From Styela clava (lineage: Eukaryota), in assembly GCF_964204865.1 (NCBI RefSeq), contig NC_135252.1:1550001-1614000 (forward strand): DNA of 64,000 nucleotides. The letters run 5' to 3'. Numbering within the stretch: the first letter of the stretch is position 1; each line of letters starts with the position of its first letter. A model generated the notes under the pieces. That model saw only the letters and a program-made list of their open reading frames with translations, did no database searches and was not told the DNA's origin. The position numbers and the translations under genes are program-made. Positions 2,845 to 27,081 of the stretch are shown here, piece by piece.

Positions 2845-3810
2845 CTATGTTCTTAATTTTTCTCCAAGCTCCGTGATCTTTCTGATTATAGCGCGTGACG
2901 TAATATGCTCTGGAACAAGCATGATTAACCATCTTGAAATTGTGTGTGGCCAGTAGCCATTCGTCCAATCGAACTTTCCAATAGTTTTCATCATATGATG
3001 GACGTATGTTGTAGCGGTGGGAAAAAATAAATTTGCAGATGACCCTAAAGGTTCGGTCATATTAGTTTGCACAAATCCTGGTTGAATACTTTGGATAATG
3101 ATGCCATGCTTTCTGTATTCCTGCGCAAGAGAAACCGATAAGGTATCATCAAAGCGCTTTGTTGCAGCATAGGTCGCGAGAATGGGACTGACAAGAGCAG
3201 CCGACATAGAAGAGATGTTAATAATCAAACCTCTTTTTCTGGTGATCATACTGGGAAGAACAAGTTCCATCATTTTAACTCTGGATGATGCGTTGCAGTG
3301 GATCACATTAGATACTGATTTCGATTGATCATCGCCAGATTTTTGAGATTTATGAAATACATTTGCACCTCCTGCAGCCATACCAACGTTATTAACCATA
3401 ATTCCTACATCTAAATCTTTCATGGCTTGAGATATTACGTTATATGGATCACCAGTGCCTGATGAATGATCAAAATTGGTGAAGTCGAACACTAATATCT
3501 TTGTCTCAACATTGTAAGCACGTTCAACTTCGGCTGCAACCTTTGATAATTTTTCCAAATTCCTGCTGATGAGAAAAATATTGATTCCCCGCTTTGCGAG
3601 CTCACGCGCTATCGCTTTCCCAATGCCATCCGTTGATCCTGTAACAATCGCCCATTTTCCAAATTTTACCAAATGCACGGGCGAATCAAAGAAGTGTATG
3701 GCGCAGAACTTGTACAACTTGTTCAAAGCTTCGACTACCAGTGTCATCGTCGTGATGATCCCGAGTATATGTAAAAATAAACTATCAGTTATATCATCGT
3801 TAAAAGCCAT
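2845..3810 (-). CDS. Intronless SDR, HSD17B12/HSD17B3/KAR-like, copy 2 (321 aa)
   Basis: N-terminal hydrophobic anchor, TGSTDGIG Rossmann motif, LISRNLEKL, VNNVG, NISS, catalytic YAATK and C-terminal TNGYWPH, all typical of the HSD17B12 clade. Confidence 0.95.
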   Translation of the reverse strand: MAFNDDITDSLFLHILGIITTMTLVVEALNKLYKFCAIHFFDSPVHLVKFGKWAIVTGSTDGIGKAIARELAKRGINIFLISRNLEKLSKVAAEVERAYNVETKILVFDFTNFDHSSGTGDPYNVISQAMKDLDVGIMVNNVGMAAGGANVFHKSQKSGDDQSKSVSNVIHCNASSRVKMMELVLPSMITRKRGLIINISSMSAALVSPILATYAATKRFDDTLSVSLAQEYRKHGIIIQSIQPGFVQTNMTEPLGSSANLFFPTATTYVHHMMKTIGKFDWTNGYWPHTISRWLIMLVPEHITSRAIIRKITELGEKLRT

Positions 3811-5169
3811 TACTATGTTTATGCTTGAATTTATCTGAAGTCATGAATGCGAAATATTACGTACGTTTGGTAGATCAGTATATATGTAATGAGATTTACC
3901 TTGAGCAAAGACTTTAAACTACATTCTTCACCTTCCCAAATAAGTTAACATATGAAGCAAACGATGCAATAATTTTCCACCTGCAAAATACTACTTACTA
4001 TCAATGAAACTTCTATTTTTTCTTTGTTATTTTCTTATGAAACTACCCTCGATCCAATATACAGTGACTAGATAAATTTAATTGATGTCTCGAGATAAGA
4101 TTGGCTAAAGTGTTGTTAATAAGTGAACGAAATTTGAAATCGCAGAGTGACTTTCTAGTAGCCAGCTTTAATATTATAACGAAAGTTTCTATTTAATTCA
4201 GACTTACGAGGTCGCAATCTGTACTCAACTATTCTTAAAGTAGGAAATTTATACCTGTGGCGCTGCATGAGTTTCAACACTATTCGCAATGTGTTACATT
4301 GTGTTTCTTAGTACATGCTACGCGATAAGCAACTCATTAATTAATACAATGTCAATATTTATTTTTCAACAAAGTTATCATATACTTTACCGACAGGCAT
4401 ATTTTCGGCCCAGCTCTATTCCTAGACAACTATAAAGCTAAAGTATGGTAGACTATAAAGGTATCCCAGTTTATTCAAAGAGTGATACATATCAGCCGCG
4501 TAAAAGAAAAAGCATTTCAGAAAACGGGAAGGGTTCGGAGGTCAACACTCTTGCAGGGCAATTTGTAAGAGCATAGCAAAAAAATCCGGTAGCTTGCAAA
4601 ATAAACAATGAATCCGGTGATCATCGAGTCACAAATATTATAAAGAGAAATTTGTCATGTTTACAGAACAAATACAATGAGACTTCCAAATAATGACATC
4701 AATATATGCAGCAAGTAAGTCATAGTACTGTTTTCAAAGCAAGTTTCATGAATGAAAAAGTATAATAGAATATGCGATATATGTGTCGTTGGAGTATGCA
4801 ATACGTGAGTAAGGTGGTAATAATTCAATTGCGGGTGTCATTAGAACAAAGAAAAAGTGACGCTATTGAATTACCTTGACATAAACATTTCTCGCAACTT
4901 GGTTACAGCCGTCCCATTTGGAGGTGCGCGAAACAAGAGGGAAGGAGAACATTTTTGGGGTAGCCTATGCGAGAACTGGATGCTACTCTTCTTTTTCACA
5001 ATAAAAATATTGTTTTTGACCCATTCATTAAAAATTCAATTCTTACCTGCAATACAAGGTACAAAGCATGCCATGGTCTTTAAAGCAAATCTCAATACCT
5101 GATTGTTATTGTTCAGCACGTCAGGCTTCATCATGTGGATATGCTGGCACTCTTCCAGGAAGCGTAGTG

Positions 5170-10011: not shown

Positions 10012-10925
10012 TCATTCTCCAAAAGCCTTGAACGTACGTCTCAAACTTCGTGCCAAATTCCCTTCCGGCAAACTTGTATAAAACCAACGAACAATGGCAT
10101 GTACCCAATAGCCTGACGTCACATCTGCCTTTCCCAGAGTTTTCATCATATGTCGGGCAAACGTAGCAGCATTTGGTACCGCCAAAATTGCATTTTTTAT
10201 GACTACTTTTGTTAAATTGGTGAACACAAATCCTGGTTGAATACTCTGAATCACGATTCCATATTTTCGATACTCGTATCGTCAAAACGTTTCGATGCCG
10301 CATAAGTTGAAACAATGGGATGAGGGTGAGACGCCGACATTGACGAGATGTTGACAACCAATCCTCGCTTGCGTGCCACCATCCCAGAGAGAATTATTTC
10401 AGTCATTTTTGCCCTGGAAGACGCCTTGCTATGAATTTGATTGTTTGTTGCAATGGAAAGAGTTTGGTTAGGTCTATGTGATAGATGAAACTCCTTCACA
10501 TCTCCCGCTGGCATTCCAACATTATTCACGAGTATTCCAACATCAAGTTTTTCAAAAGCTTGTGATATGGAATCATATGGTGAAACATTATTGATGGTAT
10601 CAAACCGAATGTAGTTGAACTTCAAAAACTTAGTTTCAACATTATATAATTCCTCAATTTCTCTGGCAACCCTTTTCAATTTTTCTTGATTTTTACTTAT
10701 CAGAAAAATGTTGATTCCCCGATGGGCAAGTTGATCTGCGATTGCTCTTCCGATTCCGTCAGTTGCACCTGTAACAACTGCTCATTTGCCAAGTTTTTTC
10801 GAAATTTATTGGCGAATCTGTAACATACGTTAACAAAAACGTGTATAGTCCATAAAACTTTTAACAGTTAGGTACAGCAAAGAAAGGTATCCAAATGCAT
10901 ACAGGCACCAACTTTTGTTAAACAT
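10012..10925 (-). pseudogene. Divergent HSD17B12-like SDR pseudogene (copy 3)
   Basis: Homologous motifs (GK*AVVTGATDGIG, ILVNNVG, NISS, YAASK, IQPGFV, SGYWVH) are present but broken. Lesions: frameshifts near 10860 and 10795, TGG>TGA stop at 10782-10784, and a frameshifting deletion after DDT near 10275. Confidence 0.9.
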
Positions 10926-12283: not shown

Positions 12284-13702
12284 TTTGACAGCGGGTTCTA
12301 TTTTTAGGTCAGCTACACGTGACTTGTACTGCCTATCAACTGAATTTTTCATGTGAATACTTGCTTTTTTCTTTTATATATGTGCTTAAATATCCATATC
12401 TACAGTGGGGTAGTACGAAAAGAATTCAAAGCAGCGATGTTGTTACTATATTGCCTAAAATGCAAATTTAGATCGCCATTATGCGGACAATATTATATGA
12501 TATTGATTTTATCATGCTATTATAGAAAGGTCGCTGACTAATACAATGGCCGAAAGAAAAGACTCTTAAATAGCAAATAGTTTGAAGACTTTCTGCAGTT
12601 TTATGAGAACGTTCTTCATTCTATCATCAAAGTGTTACGAGAGAAAATTTACAAAATAAACTTTGGTTTTATTTGCTCATAAGTGTGCATTGCGAACAAT
12701 ATTTTTAATTGGTCCGTTTATTTATTTATTTTTTCTTTGTGAAAAATAATACGATACAATGCTTCGATTTGAGTCCGCAGTCTTCACAATCTTGATACAG
12801 TATATACTACATTTTAATGAATGTATGGGCCTACGACATAATCAATCTTGAATTACTTTTAATTACAGCTGCGTAAGGAAAGATTATCCCGTCATTTGAA
12901 AGTTGGAAAATCATTGATAACTTGTGGCCCATCACAATGACGCCGGTAATTTTTTCTGACGCAAAGCCAGGAACGCTTCATATTCATATACTCAACATCT
13001 AGCTAGGCAGATAGTACTTCCACTAAACCAAAAATCTTAAAGATTCGGCATATAATTTGCTAACCCCAACAGTGACACGAGAACTATAGCACGTAGCGCG
13101 GCATAAAATTAGATTAGATAAGCAGACCGTTACACAGTGCAGCTTAGTATGTTAAAATTCTATTTTAGACCACTGTTCAATCAACCACTGTTTAAATTTG
13201 GCCAAGGAGTTTTGAACAGCCGGTACATCATCAATCCAAATCTGACAGCATTACGCAAACCGCGTACAAGAATTAATTTCGACAGCTGAAGTATGCATTT
13301 GGTGGTTAATACGGTCGATTATGAGCATGATGCCGTGACTATGCAGACTGTTTATAGCTTTCTTGACAGCAGATTCAATTTACTTCTTATATTATTTATT
13401 TTTTGGGTTAACAACTATCAAGTCAAATCCAACCTATGAGAATTGCTAGTGTTTTTGTTTGCTAGAGTTACTAGTCAATCTCAGGAATTGTATAAAATGT
13501 GGTCCATTTATTACCACATAAGTTCCAGTTGGAGTTTTTGAGTACATGGATTTTTTTTTAGACCAAAATATGCAGATGTACTTTTTTGTGTTTAATACAT
13601 ATATATAGTAATTGCTTGTAAGCTAAACCATAGAACTTTATTTAGACGCATTAATGAATTATACAATTTTAGTAAATGTCGAAAAAATCAGGGAGTAGGG
13701 AT

Positions 13703-16700
13703 ATGCGTACCTTCTTATTTTATATGGCTTTTGCAAATGCAGTTTTTCACTCCAATAGCCAAGAACTGTCGTCTGACAGAGTGACACTGACAAGTGAAAA
13801 GGGTGCTCATACAGTTGTTAATTTTCAATGTGGGGTTCGTCAACAGGCGACAACTGAATCTGATACAGCAAGACAGACCCAGGGTCGACCAGGAAAGAAA
13901 GGTCCGATTGGGCCTATGGGTCAAAAGGGAGAAAGAGGTTTTAAAGTAAGACACTAACTTACCGAATCATCCTCGTACCATTTTTTGAAGTTACATTGCA
14001 TTTTGTATTTCTAGATGTATTCAGTTCATTTCAACTGATGGTGCAAATGCAAATGCGATCTTTAATACAGTAAAACCTACGAGGCAATCTACAACGAAAC
14101 CCGCTTTTTTCGAAAAAGTAAAACTTGGCTTATGCTTGGCAAAAGAAAATATTTGTATAAAAGAATGATGTGTTGCACATTATCGAATGTGATCAAATTG
14201 GAAGACTGCCTTTCGGCAATAATATATTTAAATGAGATAGTATTGAATATTCAATATTCGGTGACCGTACATTTGAACCCATGTGTATATCCGCGGGTTC
14301 AATCTATATGCGGGTGCTAAAACCCATGGGTTAGGGTTAGTATGGGTTCAAATAACTGTAAAACAAAAAAAATTTCCATAGGTGCAATAGTATGCAGGTG
14401 CAATTGTCATGGGTTCGAGTGTACGTGGGCTCAAATGTAATGAAACCCCAATATTCACATCTGATAACATATAGTTGCCTGTAGCCCCATATTTTGCAAA
14501 ATACGCAAATGCCTGCTGTAAGATTTTATGTATACGTTTCTTTGCCTAATTTTCTTGAAGATGAAATATTTTTTCACGTTGGACAACGTATTTTCCAAGT
14601 AAAAATGTTAATAACATTTTTTCTAAATAGGTCTCTGGATTCATCAAGTATTGCAATGTAATATTGAATATTCTTGATCTAATTAGTCATTGTTATTCAT
14701 AGTTCTGCAGTGTGACTTTTGTCTTATTGGTGCAAAATATTTGAAAAAAATATAATTAGGAATCAGTTATGAGAATTTCACAGCTTGCTTTTAGTCAAAT
14801 GTTAAACTCATTACCTGTAGCTTGTCGTTGTGATTTTGCACACTTGTCAGGTTGAACATATTTCAAATGCAAAAAATGATGTAATGCATTCAGGGAGAAC
14901 AAGGCATGAAAGGTGAACCGGGGAATGACGCAGATTTACAGCGAGTTCGACAGGAAATAGGATCAATGGGTTGGTATCTCACGAAAACAAGTCGGTAATT
15001 TTCAAACTGTTTATCTTATGTTTCTGTAAAATGTTCGGTATTTAAGTAGATGTTACTTTTGAGTGTTTGTTGAAGCTCTGTGCGTACACTTTTTCATGAG
15101 TTTTAACATTGGAAAAAAATAATATAAATATTAATATGCAAAATATTAGGACGCTTTGATAAGTAAATCACGCAATCACTGCCAAGAATAAAATATCGTG
15201 AAAATATCGATAGTTTCTTTCCGTAGGCATGATTGAACATAAGCGTTCTTGGCGCATTAGCAGAAATACAATAGCAGACATGATTCTGGTAATGTAATTT
15301 CTCGGAACTGGACTCAGAGTAAACATAAAATGTTAATTAAACTATTTTTGTCATAAGAGCGTTATTTTGTTTCCTTCGAAACAATGTTTTAGAAATGTAT
15401 TTGTTTTCCGGTTTGTAGCTTATGCCTGAATGCTTGACCTAATAAAAAAGTTTGACCTGACTTAGAACTGAAGACTTGGAAGGGTTGCAGAAACGTTTCG
15501 TTATGAATACGAGAGATCACGTAAAATTTTCCACAGATATAGAATGCCATGATTACAGGACATGCATTATATTCAATATATTTACTGCGCACGACATAAA
15601 AGTTCGATTCGTGATGGCAAATCGCATATTTTAACTGATTGCGTTAGCGCGCTGGTAGTGGGCATAGTTTATGTTAAAAAATTATGAAATGTTTATTTTT
15701 ACTGTTTAGCTGTATCGAACTGTGGTGAACTCAAAGAATATGGAATTACAAAAACAGGTTATTATTTGATGAGGGATCCAGAAAGTTTAAATGCAATATA
15801 TGCATACTGTGATTTTCAGCCCAAAAATGGTAAGATATAAAAAATATAAATATGTTGTTTCATTCTCCATTGAAATTTTTCATCGCACACTACAATTCAC
15901 TTTTCAGGCGTTTCTACGTGTGAGCAGCTTAAAAACAAGTTTCACATAACAGAATCAGGATTTTACACTTTCTTGGCATCGAATTCAACCCAAACATTTC
16001 AAGTATACTGCAATTTTTCCAACTTCAAAGGTATATTAGGATTACCCAGCAAAACCTGTTATTATTTGATGCTTGCTTTTGTTGAAACCGAACTATTGAG
16101 CGCTCCCATTTTGACGCCTCCTTGTGGGCACACTCGTTTGAGAGCTGACAGTTGATAACAGCTGTGCGGTGGCCACTTGATTTGGCGTCAGACAAATGTC
16201 GAAATGGAAAGCATAAAAAAAATTCTGTGTGAAGAAATATAGATATGGAATATCCGATAAAGCCTATATAATTTATTTAAATTTTGTCTTTTTGAGACAA
16301 ATTTGTCTGGTGCCAAACCTCGTCGCTAAATAGATTGTCCCAAACAGAAGCTTAAACTTACTTCTATACCTATACTCTATTGCTATAATTATATATGAAT
16401 TTTTCAACGACAATCCTAATATAATCATTATACACGCGTATAATGGATCATCTTGGTTATTTTTACACCACTGACGATTTGCTAATGTGATTTACATCCC
16501 AAAGATCGTTCGAGAATTAAAAAGTGTTGCAATTATCTCCCATTAAAACATTTCAAAATTGAAACAACTGTAAGTTATAAGCTTGGCTAACAAAAGCGTG
16601 CATTTCAATATACAGTAATTATAATTAGATTTGTAGTTTGTTAATTAATCGCACGGTCGCACAAAACATTTTTTGTTTGATATCGAATTTGTGCCTTGCC

Positions 16701-17755
16701 CAAATATAATAATTATGTTGTTATATCTATATTTTCCTTAGCCGTGACAGAAATTTGGCATGATTTAATGCGAGAGAAAAATATAAAGAACTGCGAGGGT
16801 AAAGGCTGTTATTCCACCACGCCGACGTACAGCATTTCCATCAAACATATTATTCAAATCATCAAAAATTCTGTGGAATGTAAGCAGTACATAAAGGTAC
16901 TCATAACTATGTTCATCTCATTTGTGGAATTGAAACAAATTGGAATTAATATGTCATAGGTAAATGTGACTTGAATGGATTACTTCGAATACGTCCGCAG
17001 ATGAGAAAATGTTGAATTCTATTTATATTTATATATTTAGTCGATAAAAACATACAGAAATTGTTGTCAGGACGGGTGACACGGAATTTTGCTAAACCAG
17101 TTTATATTGCTGACGAATTATTATTGATGTTCCATTAGTACAAAAGAATCAATTATATAAACATGAAATGTAACAAAATCCTATTTCCACGAACAACCTT
17201 GTCTACAAAACGTCAGGTGCATTCTGCGGAAATTATTCCAAGTTATGTGAGGAAATAATGATAAAAGAAACATACCAAGAAAACCCTTTTTTTTATAGTG
17301 GACGCTTCATCTAACCTTATCATTATACCGAAATTTAGTTTCGATGTCGCGGCGCTGTCATCGCCCACACGAATCCAGCCTCTCCTTTCGCATGGTGGAC
17401 ATCACGGGGTGGGGAAAAAATGCTTTACTGGGGAGGTTCAACTTCAAGACAAAACGGATATTGTGCATGTGGAGAAACAGGTCAGTAATCATAGTGGGCT
17501 ACAAAATTTCAGCTCCACTTCACCTCATCTAATAAATTGTTACAGAATAATTTTATTGAAAAGTAATTATATTCAGGCACGTGCGTCAACAACCAATATA
17601 AATGTAATTGTGATAACAACGGTAACGTGATGACACAAGATGAAGGATACTTGACGGATATGGAAAAATTGCCCGTCAGTAAAATGTCTTTCGGCGATGC
17701 AGGAGATCCTTCTGAATACGGTTGGCACACATTGGGAAAGCTTGAATGCATGTAG
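13703..17755 (+). CDS. Secreted short-chain collagen with neck and Caspr/neurexin-IV-type fibrinogen-like head (ficolin/collectin-like architecture), 7 exons
   Basis: Exons ~13703-13945, 14894-14969, 15710-15829, 15908-16030, 16742-16896, 17339-17480, 17577-17755 have GT-AG ends and compatible phases. Signal MRTFLFYMAFANAVFHS; 11 GXY triplets; head ...CKQYIK/FRCRGAV...FAWWTSRGGEKMLYWGG...CACGET/GTC...CNCD...DEGYLT...LPVSKMSFGDAG...HTLGKLECM*. An upstream in-frame ATG exists at 13676. Confidence 0.85.
14260..14448. mobile_element. Small MULE-like MITE in intron 1 with a TTAGGG motif
   Basis: Imperfect TIRs (tacatttgaaccca / tgggctcaaatgta), 8-bp direct flank caatattc, internal gggttagggttag. 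Confidence 0.6.
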
Positions 17756-19962: not shown

Positions 19963-22900
19963 TCACAAATGTTTATTGGTGTTTCGACATAAAGAAAAAT
20001 TGTAATCTTCATCCGTTTCGTCTTCCTGCTGTTCAGCTTCTTCTATAGTATTTGGTATTATTTTCCCTCTTGTTTCTGGCAGGAAAGCAGCAAAAACACT
20101 ACTTGCAAAACTGACAACACCAAATGCTAGAAACGGAGTATTTAATCCAGAAAACATCTGAAAATAACACATATATGTCAAACAAGTTTTTAAAATATCA
20201 CCGTTTTTGTATAGCGCACTCAGAACATCATTCTTCTAGAAAGCACAATAGAGACAGACTCAACCCACCCACCTCAAATATTCTAGTCTTTGTTGGTCTA
20301 TTAATATTTTTTAACAGACCATTGACTTATACCATTAGCCAGCAATATCTCATTTTATCTGAAGAAGTTAGACTATGATCTAACGAAAGCTTATAAATAG
20401 ACTTACTATTTCGTGGAAAGAGATCATGTTATTCATATTTATATAAAATAGGCGCAAGAATATTCGTAAATTTTTGTACAGCGATGAGTGTTTAAAATGA
20501 AGAACCTGTATGTCTCTGGTTGAATTTCAAAAACATTAATTAATACAACGTTAATGAATGACCATGTGAAATATTGTTCGACGACCTCAAAATTTACTGA
20601 ACTTATTACTTAGCCTTAGAGTTTGTATGTGTTAATTGGCCATACTTTGTAGTTTGAGAATTGTATAATGTGACAATATTGTGTTATTCCGCAAGTCGAC
20701 TGGATGATTTATCAATTTCACTTTATATTACATATAATTACATTTCAACCCTTTTCAAGGTATAATGAAAAAAATAGGGTACATGCGCTTAATATTATGC
20801 ATTGACTTATTATTATACCAAATAGGAAAACAGCTATATGCGTTTTAAACTTGCGCATATATAGACAATACAAAGGAAATCTACTCACCGCTAGATTTGC
20901 TAAAAAGGGAGCAATCACTCCTCCGACTCTTGCCCAGAATGACATTGAACCCAGTCCAACGTTCCGCACAACAGTAGGAAATAGTTCCGCAGTATATATA
21001 TAAAGAAGATCAAATGCTCCGCTAATTCCTATTTTTCCGAAGAACAGTAACGCCAGTTTATAGTTGGAATGCTCACCTAATATAAAATAATGAAATTTTC
21101 CAAATGGAATTGAAGGAGATCGCGCTGTAATTTTCATTAAAAAGAGCTATTACTCTGACACAAGAAAAAATTCAATCTATTCAATAAGTTAAATTTAATT
21201 AAGTTCTAACCCCGAGATCTTGATATGCACATGAAAGCTGAATTTGTAATATAAATAGAGTTTACCTTCTTCAAATGGTACGATATACATCACAAACATA
21301 CATATTGCACCAAGAGCCATAAACCATATGAGCGTTCGTCTACGACCAGCCCTATAAAATATATATACATTATATTTTATGCCTCACAGTGTTTAACTAA
21401 GGTTAGGTTGATGGTTTATACAAATTCAGACTTTAGCCATGTTTAATATATGATAGCATAGTTCATCTAAAATTATATATTATGTTTGGCAATTTACTAT
21501 TTTCCATGAAAGCAATTTATGTGTTTGGATTCAGCTATTTTTGTTATAGGTGATGAAAAAAAATGTATTTTATTAAATGTTTTGGAACCAAGCGTTGAAA
21601 GAGCTGCGCAGCACATTCCATCAATATTGCTAGGCCATGTTTCATTAAAAATGTCAATGAAGTTATTGCACTTGTAAAATTGTATTTCCTGCCATTTTCA
21701 ATGTATGCAACGACTCACCATTTTCGTTCCATGAGGTAAATAAAGAGTGGAACAGCCGGAATCTGACTTATTCCTGATATAATGAATGCAACATAAAAAT
21801 TTGAACTAAATGATCCTGATCCAAGCGTGATACCATAAAACACAAAACTTGCAGTAAACCTGAGAATGAAAGTGAAGTAATTATACTTATGTATAACATG
21901 AAATGTATTGACATGAATGAGGCATTGGCGATATAGTGTCGATAACTTATATGACATGTTAAGTACATAACTGCATGTTAGCACCATAACCCACAAACTT
22001 CGTAATTGAATACTGTTGCTATATTCAAATATTGTCTGCTTTGTTTGAGGCCACAATTTGTCACAGTGAAACTGCAATAAATTTACTGTTTCTACTGTAA
22101 GTCGTCGTAATTCAGTCGAGACAAAGTGGCGAACGACCACGTGTTGATCTGTTATTCACATCACCACACTGTTTACTCTGAAATAATTTTCATGAATGCA
22201 GTCACCTAAAACATTGGTTCTCAAAGTGGGGTCCGCCAATGATTTTTTGGGGGAGGGGGGAGGGGGTGGGGACCTTGACACCGACACAAAAGCACTGCTG
22301 TGACGTTTTTTTTTATAAGGGATAGTGCTGAAAAGATTTTAGTGTTTATTTGTAACACATGAGACACGATACGAGAGTAATGGCCCAAACAGAACCCCCA
22401 AATAGATGAACAGGTGGAAGCCAAGCAATTGCGCCCATCACATTAAAAACAAGAGAGCTATGCTCAAATATATGGACACGTAGAGTCACATAATTTTGAT
22501 GACGTTATAGCGAAAAAAAAAGTAATAGCCTTCTGGAGAAAATTTTTATCTTTAACCACTAAAAATTTCAAAGCAATTGGTCCAGTATTCGAAGAGAAAA
22601 GCGACTTTTTAAAAACGTGTCAAAGAACAAGAACAACAACAACATTATAATTCAAACGATCGTTATGTCCACTACGTGTCCAAAAACTGTACTAACAACA
22701 TGCAATAAATCAATGCTCGATATAACATGTTCCTATTCTGAATTTTTAGTGGACCGCGAGTTCTCATAAAAAATGCAGGGAGACCGTTACGCAAAATTTT
22801 CCAAAAAGTTCGAGAACCACTGACTTAAAAGAAAGCTTCGAAGTTCCAAAAGAAACGTATTTTCAGCCAATGCTCATTGGGGTCATTGTCTGTAAATGAA

Positions 22901-25900
22901 GCATTGGGAGAGTCTCGAATAATAAGCTTCGTTTTGTCATGTCATCAAAGCTTTTCAGACCTGACCAATTGTGTCCAATAGTATTGATATTATATCTTAT
23001 CCAGGATTTCAGTCGATGCCCAATAGTCCTCTTTAAAGGAGCCTGTTCTATTGTCAAAACTTATTATATCGACTCTAATTCTTTACTAAGGATTTAAACA
23101 ATATTTTTTTGTAAAATAGGTTTTTTCAAAGGCACCAACCATTGCAAACTCAGAATGAGAGATCTGTAACGAAGAGTAGGATGCTTGATTAAATCAATAA
23201 TAGATCTCGTTTTCTTAATCTCTGGTTCGGATGTTAATAGTCTGGCAGTTGATATTTCTCTGGAATTGCTTTGCCCTGTTTCAAAAATGAATATCGAGGG
23301 TATATCACATGCTATAACAGAGTGTCATCCGGTGTAATGCAAAACGAAGATATATTTTTCCGACTTGTTAGCAAAGATAGATATTCAAAACGTCGTTAAA
23401 AAATTTCATCATATTAATAACCATGAGTTTCCTCTTTGGCAACAATTTGTCAACGTCGTTTCTGGAACTTGGCAAAAAAAGTGATTCCGCTCATTTATTC
23501 ATATACTACTTACCTGTATCACCGGTCTGGCGATCACTTGAAATCGTTCCGGCATCGTCATCTAATAGTAGATCGTAGTCTGAATTTAGAATATAAGAAC
23601 TTAGATGGTATGTAGTTTCCACAAGGTAACATTTATTTAGTAGCGTATTAATTCTACCCTGAAATGTGCGGCGTATATAACTTGGGTAACCATTATATAT
23701 ATGAAATGTAACATGATCGATGAGAAATGAACTCTACGTAATTGTCACAGGCAGAATTATTTTCCTTCAATTGTTACCGTTGTGGTATTGAACATAGTTC
23801 CCAAATTGGAATTTTTTCAAAACTGTTTTTACCATTTGGTTTTGAATCATCTAACTAAAAATCACTTTTTTCCCAATTTTGAGATAGTATTCTACACCCA
23901 TTTTAACCAAATGATTGGTTGGGTAACAAAAATCCTGTAAAATCATATTGACATTCCAATAACGACGTACTCCATAGTAAAGAAAACCAAAACTGTCAAT
24001 AACCATTAAGATTACTCAACTGTGATAAAATAGAAAAAAGTATGTGAGAAATAGAAAAAAGAATTGGTGGGAATAATCGTACATAGGAATCTCCAGATAT
24101 ACACTCGACAGAGATTTACTGCAGAAATTCACTAATCGAAGATTTCAGCATGTTCCTTTTACTCAAAAACATTTAACCGCTAGCATAGTGTTTGTTGAAA
24201 AAAAAATCTACACTGGTGAGGCACGAGATTGGAATACGTAGTTGAAAAGGGAGTATGTATGAAAAAAATCCACACCTGAAGATGATTGAAATATTGTTGT
24301 TGTCGGTTATGCTTAAGTTTTCTTAATATTTACCTTCTTCATTTGACTTATTCCATTTTGATATTTTTTCAACGACTTCTTGAGCACTGATAATTTTTCC
24401 ACGGGACAGTAACCAACGTGGTGATTCCGGGACGATGCTGAAGTCAAATAGAATATAAAGTTATTAAACCAGGACCGACATAATCAATAACAATTAATTA
24501 TATTATTATTTTGTGTAAATAACTTTAAATATCTACACTCGCATTATAGATAAATTGAACCAATAAAATGAACTAATAAACACAAATGAGCAAATGTCCT
24601 GGATCTGGTTATTGGATGCGGTTGAAACCAGAAAATATATTGAAACACCAAATGACTATCGTATAGTTATATGAATATTTATATGAATGTGTTATAAATA
24701 AAGTGATTCAGCGAACCTAGTCCAGTCGCTTGAGAACCCCTTCGCCATAATTCCATATGTGTATATATATTGTGAGTATTTGTAACTTACTAAAAATAGA
24801 TGAAAACGAAGATCCCAGGAATCGTAGTGATGAAATACATCTGTCGCCAACTTGGAAACAGATAAGCAATCCACAAGAAAGCAAGCATGTTAGCTGTGTA
24901 TCCTATTTCAGCAAGAGCGCCTGAAAATGCGATCATGTTTTGAAATTGCTTAAAAAATTTGTATTTTATTGACGTAATAAATTTGATGTGTTATGGTTAA
25001 TCTATTATTTCTGACAATAAAATATGTATACTAACCAATATAAAAGTTCGATTTGGCTTGCGTCAAACTCACATTGTGTATAAGCTTCCGATGGAACAGT
25101 TACGCAAAAGAACAAGAGTGAGCCGGTCAGTGTTTACAACCAATCTGAACTCGTCACGTCGCATGGGAAAATTAATTATGTACGAAGAATCGAATGAAAC
25201 CTAAACTCGCTATATAATGGACAATAAATGATTGAGTTATAATAAGTTAAAAACACAAATCATTGCAATTTTTCATTAACTCAGTAATCTCAACAATATT
25301 CTCAATCTGGTATTAAAAACCTAACAAAATATACATCACTGATTCCAATATACTCGGTGACAAATCAGAAACTGGAATTCGTTTCACAGTTACCGAGTGT
25401 TCTTCGAAGCCAACATGACGAAATACGTTTTTAAAGTCTTCCGGAATATCTCAAATAGCTTGTACCTATGTAGTGAATGCAATTTATATTGTTATTAAAA
25501 ATATAATTGAAGTATCTTACCATTTACCACCCACAGCTTCGACCCAGTACTTTCTTGAGTTAGAATGGTCTGAACCACACCAAGTCCGCCTATGAGAAAC
25601 CCCGATATTGCTCGACATGCAGCAAATTGTTGCCAGTTCTGACAGAATCCGGTGACAATTTGAAAAACCAGACTGAGTGCATAGACTGTGAAATTGTTAG
25701 AATAGAGTTCAGTTGATTTCCTAATAAAATCTCACCCTGCGGTCATACAAAATGACATATGAGGATGATTTTTTTAGGTTCAATTACCCATAAATACGGG
25801 TCAAATACTTGTACTTGACATACCCTAGACATCTACTAACAGATCTTGAATAGACCAAGCAAATAACTCTTGTACGATATTCGATTTGAAGTTGGTGATT

Positions 25901-27081
25901 TCCTCATGAGTTATGACGAGATGTTTTTCTTCAACAATTATACCAAGTTGCACAAAACAAGTAACGATACAACTAGTTTTGAGTAAACACATACCTATCC
26001 AAGAAACTCGTTTTCTGCCGTAAAGATCAGATAGCTGTCCCATTATTATTGCACCAGGCATATACCCAACATAAAACATTGATTGCAGAAACCCAGGAAT
26101 CCAATTTCGAGAATCTGTTAAATTCCACTAAAATAGAACAAAGTAGACAGCTGATTCTAGAATGTATCCTCAGCAGCTTGTGCTTCTGGTGTAGCGTATA
26201 CATCAGTATGGCAGCTCTCATTGAAAACTCAGTGGGAAAATATACATATAGTATTGCTATGGGGCGTGTACTTAGAAAACGAACATTCATTTAACACGAT
26301 TTAGGTTTCAAACTGTTGCCGGGACATTCCAATTGCTATCTAACCTTACAGTGTCCGTAAATGCTTGTCAGTTCAATCTGTTTTGCTTTTCGTGTAATGT
26401 AACCGCAAATATAAAGATCAATATGGTGCAAAGTTGACTTGTTGAAACAAATGGAATTAACAGTACAACTCGGTTGATGGTGTTGCATCACTTAAAATCC
26501 AGATTAATAGTATTTATTCTAAAGGATCAGGTTCCAAAACAAGCAATGCAAATTTATGTCACATTTCATCATTACCTCAGTAACGATTGTCTGCACATTA
26601 CTAGCATGCGGGTTATCTACGAATGCTGACGAAGGGGCTGAAGAAAATACCATCAGTATGAGATCTGGAGGTTTCGCAAGCTGAAAAAATATTTCAGAAT
26701 TAGGGTTAAGTTATTTCCAGTTTTCAAACTTATTCTCTATGTGCAATAAAATGTCACCTAGTTGATATGTAAAAAAAATTACATTGGTATGCATACAAAC
26801 GAACGAAGTCATTTTTATTTTTGATTAAACATGAAATCTTGTCTTAATGTGTTTTGTCACTTTTACTGCAATTTGCGAACAATGAACATATATATACGAA
26901 GTTAACCTACCGAAAATAGAAAACCCAGCAACGATAAAATGACATAAGCCCTTTTGTAAACAGATCCAACTTGTACATTCAGAATTTTGTCTATACTTCC
27001 CATTTTATTTCCGACAACCGATCGAGGTACCTTCCAAGAATTGCTGTTTTGGTTTCTGAGTCGTCGTCTACCTCCTGGCAT
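19963..27081 (-). CDS. SLC22-family (MFS) organic ion transporter, short-loop SLC22A15-like, 12 exons
   Basis: Spliced exons read ...TIVTE/WNLTD...[11 protein letters not shown]...PESPRWL...FVFYGITL...AGRRRTL...[19 protein letters not shown]...[10 protein letters not shown]...LPETRGK. Approximate exons: 27081-26911, 26681-26577, 26127-25995, 25685-25521, 24920-24790, 24438-24334, 23580-23514, 23275-23139, 21859-21718, 21351-21265, 21076-20888, 20157-19963. Start codon uncertain (27081 or ~27003). Confidence 0.9.
22212..22822. mobile_element. hAT MITE in an SLC22 intron, carrying a nested HINE
   Basis: TIRs cattggttctcaaa ... ttcgagaaccactg; 8-bp TSD acctaaaa/acttaaaa (1 mismatch). Confidence 0.75.
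22445..22686 (-). mobile_element. Helentron-associated interspersed element (DINE-1/HINE-like)
   Basis: On the minus strand: T-run, subTIR tggacacg, (TTG)n microsatellite, 3' subTIR cgtgtcca, hairpin gagcatagctc, then tcttgtttt. No TSD. Confidence 0.65.

Follow-up and report, generated by a model that had tools for sequence, protein, structure and literature searches.

The collagens known to start complement carry C-type lectin, fibrinogen or C1q heads. In the tunicate Styela clava, a stretch of 64,000 nucleotides that we analysed as a whole (the window) holds a gene that, read from its letters, appeared to join a short collagen stalk with a motif of the MASP-binding type to a head resembling a domain of Caspr/neurexin IV. 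This locus raises the question of whether such a gene is real, what kind of domain its head is, and whether its product might feed the lectin pathway of complement. The explanation that we favour, with moderate confidence, is that the gene encodes an oligomeric tunicate defence collagen of a new head class, which would bind a surface ligand through its Caspr-type heads and dock MASPs on a lysine of its stalk.

Gene model, transcripts and domain order

Seven exons on the + strand, separated by introns that are all GT..AG, give a frame that is open from an ATG at 13703 to a TAG at 17755, the coding part of exon 1 being 13703-13945 when counted from that ATG. A second in-frame ATG lies upstream at 13676, adds nine residues and is used in the NCBI model; the RNA-like contigs begin 5' of it, and translation from it is identical to P0001, the Styela clava protein XP_039268365. 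The features of the gene are the following.

13676..13945, + strand: exon 1, with both ATGs (13676 and 13703), the likely signal peptide, the Cys segment and GXY triplets 1-7
13829..13831, + strand: the single N-terminal Cys, residue 52 in the NCBI model
13889..13906, + strand: P-G-K-K-G-P, a motif of the MASP-docking type (defined in PMC2856262), in collagen triplets 1-3
14894..14969, + strand: exon 2, with the final four GXY triplets (14894-14929) and the predicted helical neck (14930-14968)
15710..15829, + strand: exon 3, first repeat of an N-subdomain of the fibrinogen/COLFI type, ~40 residues with two Cys
15908..16030, + strand: exon 4, second N-subdomain repeat, present in 7 of 7 RNA-like runs
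16742..16896, + strand: exon 5, where the body of the Caspr-type head begins
17339..17480, + strand: exon 6, head, containing WW..R, YWGG and CACG as well as the variable loop (17345-17398)
17577..17755, + strand: exon 7, end of the head (CNCD, D.G.L, LPV) and the stop; the transcript extends to at least 18000

Joints for all six introns were found in run X1, which was guessed, not recorded, to be RNA, and none of the six was present in the DNA-like run X10. One X1 contig (record 4) runs from exon 2 into the 3' UTR with zero differences from the window, and the longest joins stop short of the whole CDS. Given these joints, from runs guessed to be RNA, the gene is real and expressed, and its collagen exons are spliced to its head exons, as the sequence-only reading had supposed. 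Every motif named in that reading lies where it had been placed, on the + strand; the single Cys N-terminal to the collagen and the 11 GXY triplets proved exact in the spliced model, which has a further 14 Cys in the head, and the short helical neck coincides with a predicted helix. The proposed signal peptide is likely, the call having been made by eye and from the clearer leaders of paralogs.

The same reading had overlooked exons 3 and 4, which encode two tandem subdomains of ~40 residues between the neck and the head. They are of the type that begins fibrinogen and COLFI domains, also named 'NEC', and relatives have one to three of them by a rough pattern count. In P0002, the nearest paralog, one annotated isoform leaves out exon 4. 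We rejected mutually exclusive use of the two exons, both being joined in 7 of 7 RNA-like runs, across which no exon-skipping joint around them was seen. An annotated short isoform, P0012, begins inside intron 1.

The product begins with a likely signal peptide and a segment with one Cys; 11 GXY triplets follow, with G-R-P-G-K-K-G-P at their start, and then the helical neck, two N-subdomains and the Caspr-type head. Most paralogs have two Cys in the N-terminal segment, compared with one in XP_039268365. The only Pfam family matched by P0001 was Collagen, likewise when single exons were searched; Fibrinogen_C, Lectin_C, COLFI, laminin-G and EGF gave no match in P0001, and no transmembrane part was found in it. 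NCBI lists the protein as 'EGF and laminin G domain-containing protein-like' or 'contactin-associated protein-like 4'. Judged by its domain order it is misnamed, having the architecture of neither a Caspr nor a laminin-G protein. A tunicate-wide family of such collagens would mean that labels like 'contactin-associated protein-like', given by automatic annotation, conceal many likely immune receptors.

No tandem paralog of the gene lies within the 64-kb window. Its neighbours, on the - strand, are copies of a short-chain dehydrogenase gene (2845-3840 and 10251-10781) and an MFS transporter gene (19963-26127). Intron 1 contains, outside the protein, an unstranded, very high-copy short repeat with inverted arms (14266..14439) that is MITE-like. 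The stretch from 41206 to 64000 is a tandem duplication with units of ~12.2-12.4 kb that are 98-99.9% identical and carry a weak ZP-N match, and is either a recent duplication or an assembly artefact.

Sequence type and predicted fold of the head

The head is 37% identical over 204 residues (E 6e-35) to the central domain of the Caspr-like protein P0156, which carries laminin-G, F5/8C and EGF domains, and it shares with that domain the Cys pattern and the YWGG, CACG and CNCD motifs. Its core is strongly conserved, and a search of the PDB gave no sequence match to it. We used two AlphaFold2 models, whose mean pLDDT was 71 in the first and 83 in the second (head blocks at 92-98 in the second). 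For both, the best structural match was the procollagen C-propeptide, with Foldseek E of 6e-9 to 7e-9 and VIA Z of 13.3 and 14.5 (the latter with an rmsd of 3.7 and 186 aligned), the next row being at ~7. Fibrinogen domains reached Foldseek E of only 1e-3 to 1e-2, and the match of a head profile to Styela FBG loci was confined to profile positions 6-40, the ~35-residue N-subdomain (E ~0.005). On these models, the head is Caspr-type by sequence and C-propeptide-like by predicted fold, and it is not a ficolin head. Of the earlier description of the head as the 'fibrinogen-like region of Caspr', the Caspr part holds, whereas the predicted fold is far closer to the C-propeptide than to fibrinogen; the accompanying claim that the head differs from the canonical FBG of ficolins agrees with the restricted profile match.

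Clustering of the head with the C-propeptides of structural collagens had been named in advance as an outcome that would speak against a defence collagen. In fold this is partly what we found, because the nearest solved structure is a fibrillar-collagen C-propeptide; in sequence it is not, COLFI being absent from the Pfam matches. The solved structure nearest to the predicted fold thus belongs to a trimerisation domain, not to a lectin, which counts against the explanation that we favour. The protein might be a small structural or matrix collagen, of the tunic, an adhesive or the basement membrane, whose head would drive chain assembly like a procollagen C-propeptide. Beside the top structural match, this account could draw on the Atlas, which places a paralog closest to clusters of fibrillar collagens, at 0.90, no more than a lead; for the paralog P0015 the clusters were all of fibrillar collagens or ficolins, and the counts of shared features were low. 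We nevertheless consider a structural collagen improbable, as the stalk has just 11 triplets and no COLFI match follows it, the N-subdomains have two Cys each in place of the C-propeptide base with its extra inter-chain Cys pair and calcium site (as described in passages of PMC5353611), the family does not conserve the loop that is seen in L079, a fibrillar collagen of this genome, and lectin-type heads occur on the same stalk.

The identity to P0156 and the strong conservation of the head core would also suit a protein that is secreted and serves as a multivalent ligand or decoy towards the endogenous partners of Caspr/neurexin-IV-type domains, with a role in adhesion or development and not in immunity. 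This seems very improbable to us for a protein without laminin-G, EGF or transmembrane parts; moreover, the collagen-bearing heads group apart from the Caspr-like row of the tree described below, and gene expansion together with a shared stalk fits a recognition repertoire.

Compared with the nearest paralog, the most divergent stretch of the protein is one head loop, in which 9 of 18 residues differ and which we regard as a candidate ligand site on the strength of this variation. With pN at 0.36 and pS at 0.40, relaxed constraint explains the divergence of the loop as well as positive selection does. To our knowledge, the head domain of Caspr type has no known ligand. Elsewhere the same head type is fused to SRCR, CUB, C-type lectin, F5/8C, C1q and SUEL domains.

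Relatives of the head and the shared stalk motif

Searched against the Styela genome, the last exon gave 24 matches, 16 of them strong and near full length. When 100 of the 142 genomic matches to the stalk motif were compared with these positions, a P-G-K-x-G-P match was found no more than 12 kb upstream of 11 of the 16 strong last exons, and the Glu form of the motif at one. The architecture of collagen plus Caspr-type head also occurs in Clavelina, Ciona and marine sequences. At E 0.001 the head has 1412 representative relatives, and the majority of the best 150 are without collagen. In a FastTree tree of 166 heads, from which near-identical isoforms (7 proteins) were omitted, one group of 47 rows (support 91, unstarred) holds 24 of the 25 motif-bearing and 5 of the 8 other collagen proteins. 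This group stands apart from the Caspr-like row, which is single, so that the tree gives no direction of transfer. The collagen-bearing forms of Branchiostoma make up a separate group in the tree; two of them, P0034 and P0033, are predicted membrane-anchored collagens with the same motif and head type.

Among 27 intact clade members, P-G-K-x-G stands at the start of the collagen in 22 and is missing in five. The residue x that follows the key Lys in these 22 is Arg in 12, Lys in two, Ile in two, and Met, Leu, Gln, Val, Ser or His in one each; it is acidic in none. Lys occupies the X position of later triplets in 7 of 221 cases. In P0021, Glu replaces the key Lys. Such Glu forms, like the five members that lack the motif, count against the docking reading.

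A codon-pattern search of the genome for G-x-P-G-K-x-G-P-x-G, a motif low in information, gave 142 matches, compared with 17 for the reversed control; the frequency of the stalk motif is above chance. The Glu version of the same pattern had 65 matches, 26 of which came from one array. Among the first 30 matches to the Lys form, the motif lies within triplets 1-3 in 29, and Arg follows the key Lys in 22. From 100 of the 142 matches we sampled 34 loci, one per cluster and excluding loci already assigned. The motif opens a short collagen in 31 of them, nearly all after a visible leader and Cys segment. The remaining three comprise one locus with the motif in mid-stalk and two long structural collagens (L079 and L092), and the presence of the motif inside the latter two counts against the docking reading. 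A Pfam scan of 36 hand-picked frames found, downstream in the 34 loci, FBG in six, F5/8C in five, C-type lectin in six (three below the cut-off) and COLFI in one; a head was linked to a stalk when it lay close by on the same strand, and not by transcripts. The other loci gave no Pfam match, and several of these are lectin-like by eye. A further six loci had an F5/8C head (four), a weak C-type lectin (one) or no head (one). Lys after the key Lys recurs with an F5/8C head (L043) and with a weak C-type lectin head (L096).

The F5/8 type C (discoidin) heads behind the P-G-K-x-G-P stalk were seen at L040-L043, L082, L084, L090, L100 and L102, and by their domain matches would be a second non-classical head class. 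At L086:5476-6959 (C5 near 17.46 Mb, with four tandem matches) the stalk is followed by a Cys-rich domain that is WSC-like by eye and has zero Pfam matches. A tandem array at C6:13.27-13.60 Mb contains ~25 motif-bearing collagen genes; L091, the one examined, matches C-type lectin weakly. A ficolin cluster at C10:7.92-8.04 Mb has Lys and Glu versions of the motif, and the Glu form occurs at eight sites on C10.

These counts lead us to propose, tentatively and with rather less than moderate confidence, that tunicates have a modular lectin-pathway repertoire, in Styela of more than 100 genes, in which one MASP-docking stalk would carry swapped heads (C-type lectin, FBG, F5/8C, Caspr/C-propeptide-type and others).

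Proposed MASP docking and comparison with known systems

The stalk was said to carry a MASP-type motif whose X is normally aliphatic and here is Lys. The key Lys is indeed present, conserved in the family and found at the same position in loci with ficolin and C-type lectin heads, so that P-G-K-K-G-P at 13889-13906 has, as encoded, the lectin-pathway form; the aliphatic or Met Xaa of that form is replaced here by Lys, and most of the family likewise departs from an aliphatic residue, with Arg in 12 of 22. According to passages of PMC2856262, Lys alone is essential in the MBL-type motif, and Ser next to it is tolerated and Glu is not; part of PMC3179595 confirms the Glu effect. The residues after Lys covered in the former passages are aliphatic, Met or Ser, with Arg and Lys outside them. 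The pattern of residues beside the key Lys in the family fits this MASP-docking rule. Two features of the stalks would argue against docking, namely that x is usually Arg (Lys here) and that the motif occupies the very first triplets of the helix, at the point of convergence of the stalks. The MBL motif lies further along the helix, and in the passages of PMC2856262 tolerance is shown for two-triplet shifts only. XP_039268365, in which the key Lys is followed by another Lys, may dock less strongly than its Arg, Met or Leu relatives. Its second stalk Lys is a Y-position lysine and could be glycosylated; Y-position lysines often are, and the authors of PMC2856262, in the part seen, think that this probably blocks MASP binding.

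Candidate partners are encoded in the same genome. Four MASP-like loci (L134-L137) are clustered at C8 17.31-17.37 Mb. Within the stretch analysed, L134 has all three protease motifs, L137 has two (His and Ser), and L135 and L136 have one each; L134 and L137 both extend to the catalytic Ser motif. The CUB exons of all four have acidic residues at the calcium positions, as these are placed in passages of PMC5300068. The genome has ~150 CUB matches in all. P0178 is a MASP-1-like protein with the order CUB1-EGF-CUB2-CCP that ends after one CCP, and no protease motifs were found within 30 kb downstream. A complex prediction with three stalk copies (P0001 60-116), CUB2 of P0178 and calcium scored 0.02 and gave no answer, and P0178, being without a protease domain, is perhaps not the best partner for such a prediction. 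Its gene, at L125 (C8:14.207-14.215 Mb), stands alone and might encode a lectin-pathway regulator; we take it to resemble vertebrate MAp44.

If MASPs were not the partners, the protein could be a soluble recognition collagen, an opsonin or agglutinin, that does not activate complement, its P-G-K-R/K-G-P binding a phagocyte receptor, another CUB protein or a polyanion, or nucleating the short helix. The basic residue after Lys in most members, the fixed position of the motif at the helix start and the other partners that ~150 CUB matches could supply all agree with this, and SP-A and adiponectin are described in the same part of PMC2856262 as bouquets without complement activity. We think it rather unlikely, since a Lys at a rare X position with an acidic neighbour in 0 of 22 members is what the MASP rule in the passages cited above describes, and since the MASP-like genes retain the acidic CUB residues.

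For a defence collagen that docks MASPs, the steps can be outlined by analogy with MBL and ficolins. The protein would be secreted, the neck and the collagen of 11 triplets would bring its chains together as trimers, and the N-terminal Cys would link trimers into larger bouquets; the Caspr-type heads would bind a surface ligand multivalently, the conserved stalk Lys would dock MASP proteases, and the docked MASPs would lead to C3 activation and opsonisation. As the Caspr-type head sits on the same Lys-bearing stalk as in the ficolin and collectin genes, it likely represents a third kind of microbe-sensing collagen. The shared stalk offers a simple test, in which one MASP fragment is set against many stalks. 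If the proposal is true, a Caspr-type domain would be a pattern-recognition fold, complement initiation would extend beyond MBL, ficolin and C1q heads, and a tunicate-wide family would add a head class together with the first testable binding function for a Caspr-type domain.

MBL, ficolin, C1q and MASP of ascidians are reviewed in PMC5465252 and PMC11312191, and the passages of these reviews that we drew on do not mention a Caspr-type head on collagen; one passage of PMC11312191 calls it still unclear what part the ficolins and MBLs of ascidians that carry collagen play in complement, which counts against the docking reading. No published collagen with a Caspr-type head was found in the literature searched, the scope of which excluded most subscription papers, including those on ascidian lectins.

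With the ficolins (vertebrate L, M and H, and ascidian) the protein has in common the whole plan of leader, Cys segment, short P-G-K-x-G-P collagen, neck and a head that starts with an N-subdomain, and in six Styela FBG-head loci the motif opens the collagen just as it does here; ficolins, however, have a canonical FBG head, where the present family has a Caspr-type body, two tandem N-subdomains and Lys or Arg as x. The collectins (MBL, CL-K1 and ascidian MBL-like proteins) share the stalk plan and the motif, including the Styela loci with C-type lectin heads, but here there is no C-type lectin domain and no kink, the modelled head has a different fold, and the motif is at the helix start. Caspr and neurexin IV have a central domain of the same type as the head, but embed it among F5/8C, laminin-G, EGF and membrane parts, whereas here it is a stand-alone C-terminal head on collagen, with which the gene ends. 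The fibrillar procollagen C-propeptide (COLFI; PDB 5K31 and 4AE2) is the sole clear structural match and likewise follows collagen and a helical stalk; it differs in being only 12-15% identical to the head, in its inter-chain Cys pair, absent here, and in following hundreds of triplets instead of 11. By membership, therefore, XP_039268365 is not a ficolin, a collectin, a Caspr or a procollagen; as its predicted domains are arranged, it is built like a defence collagen.
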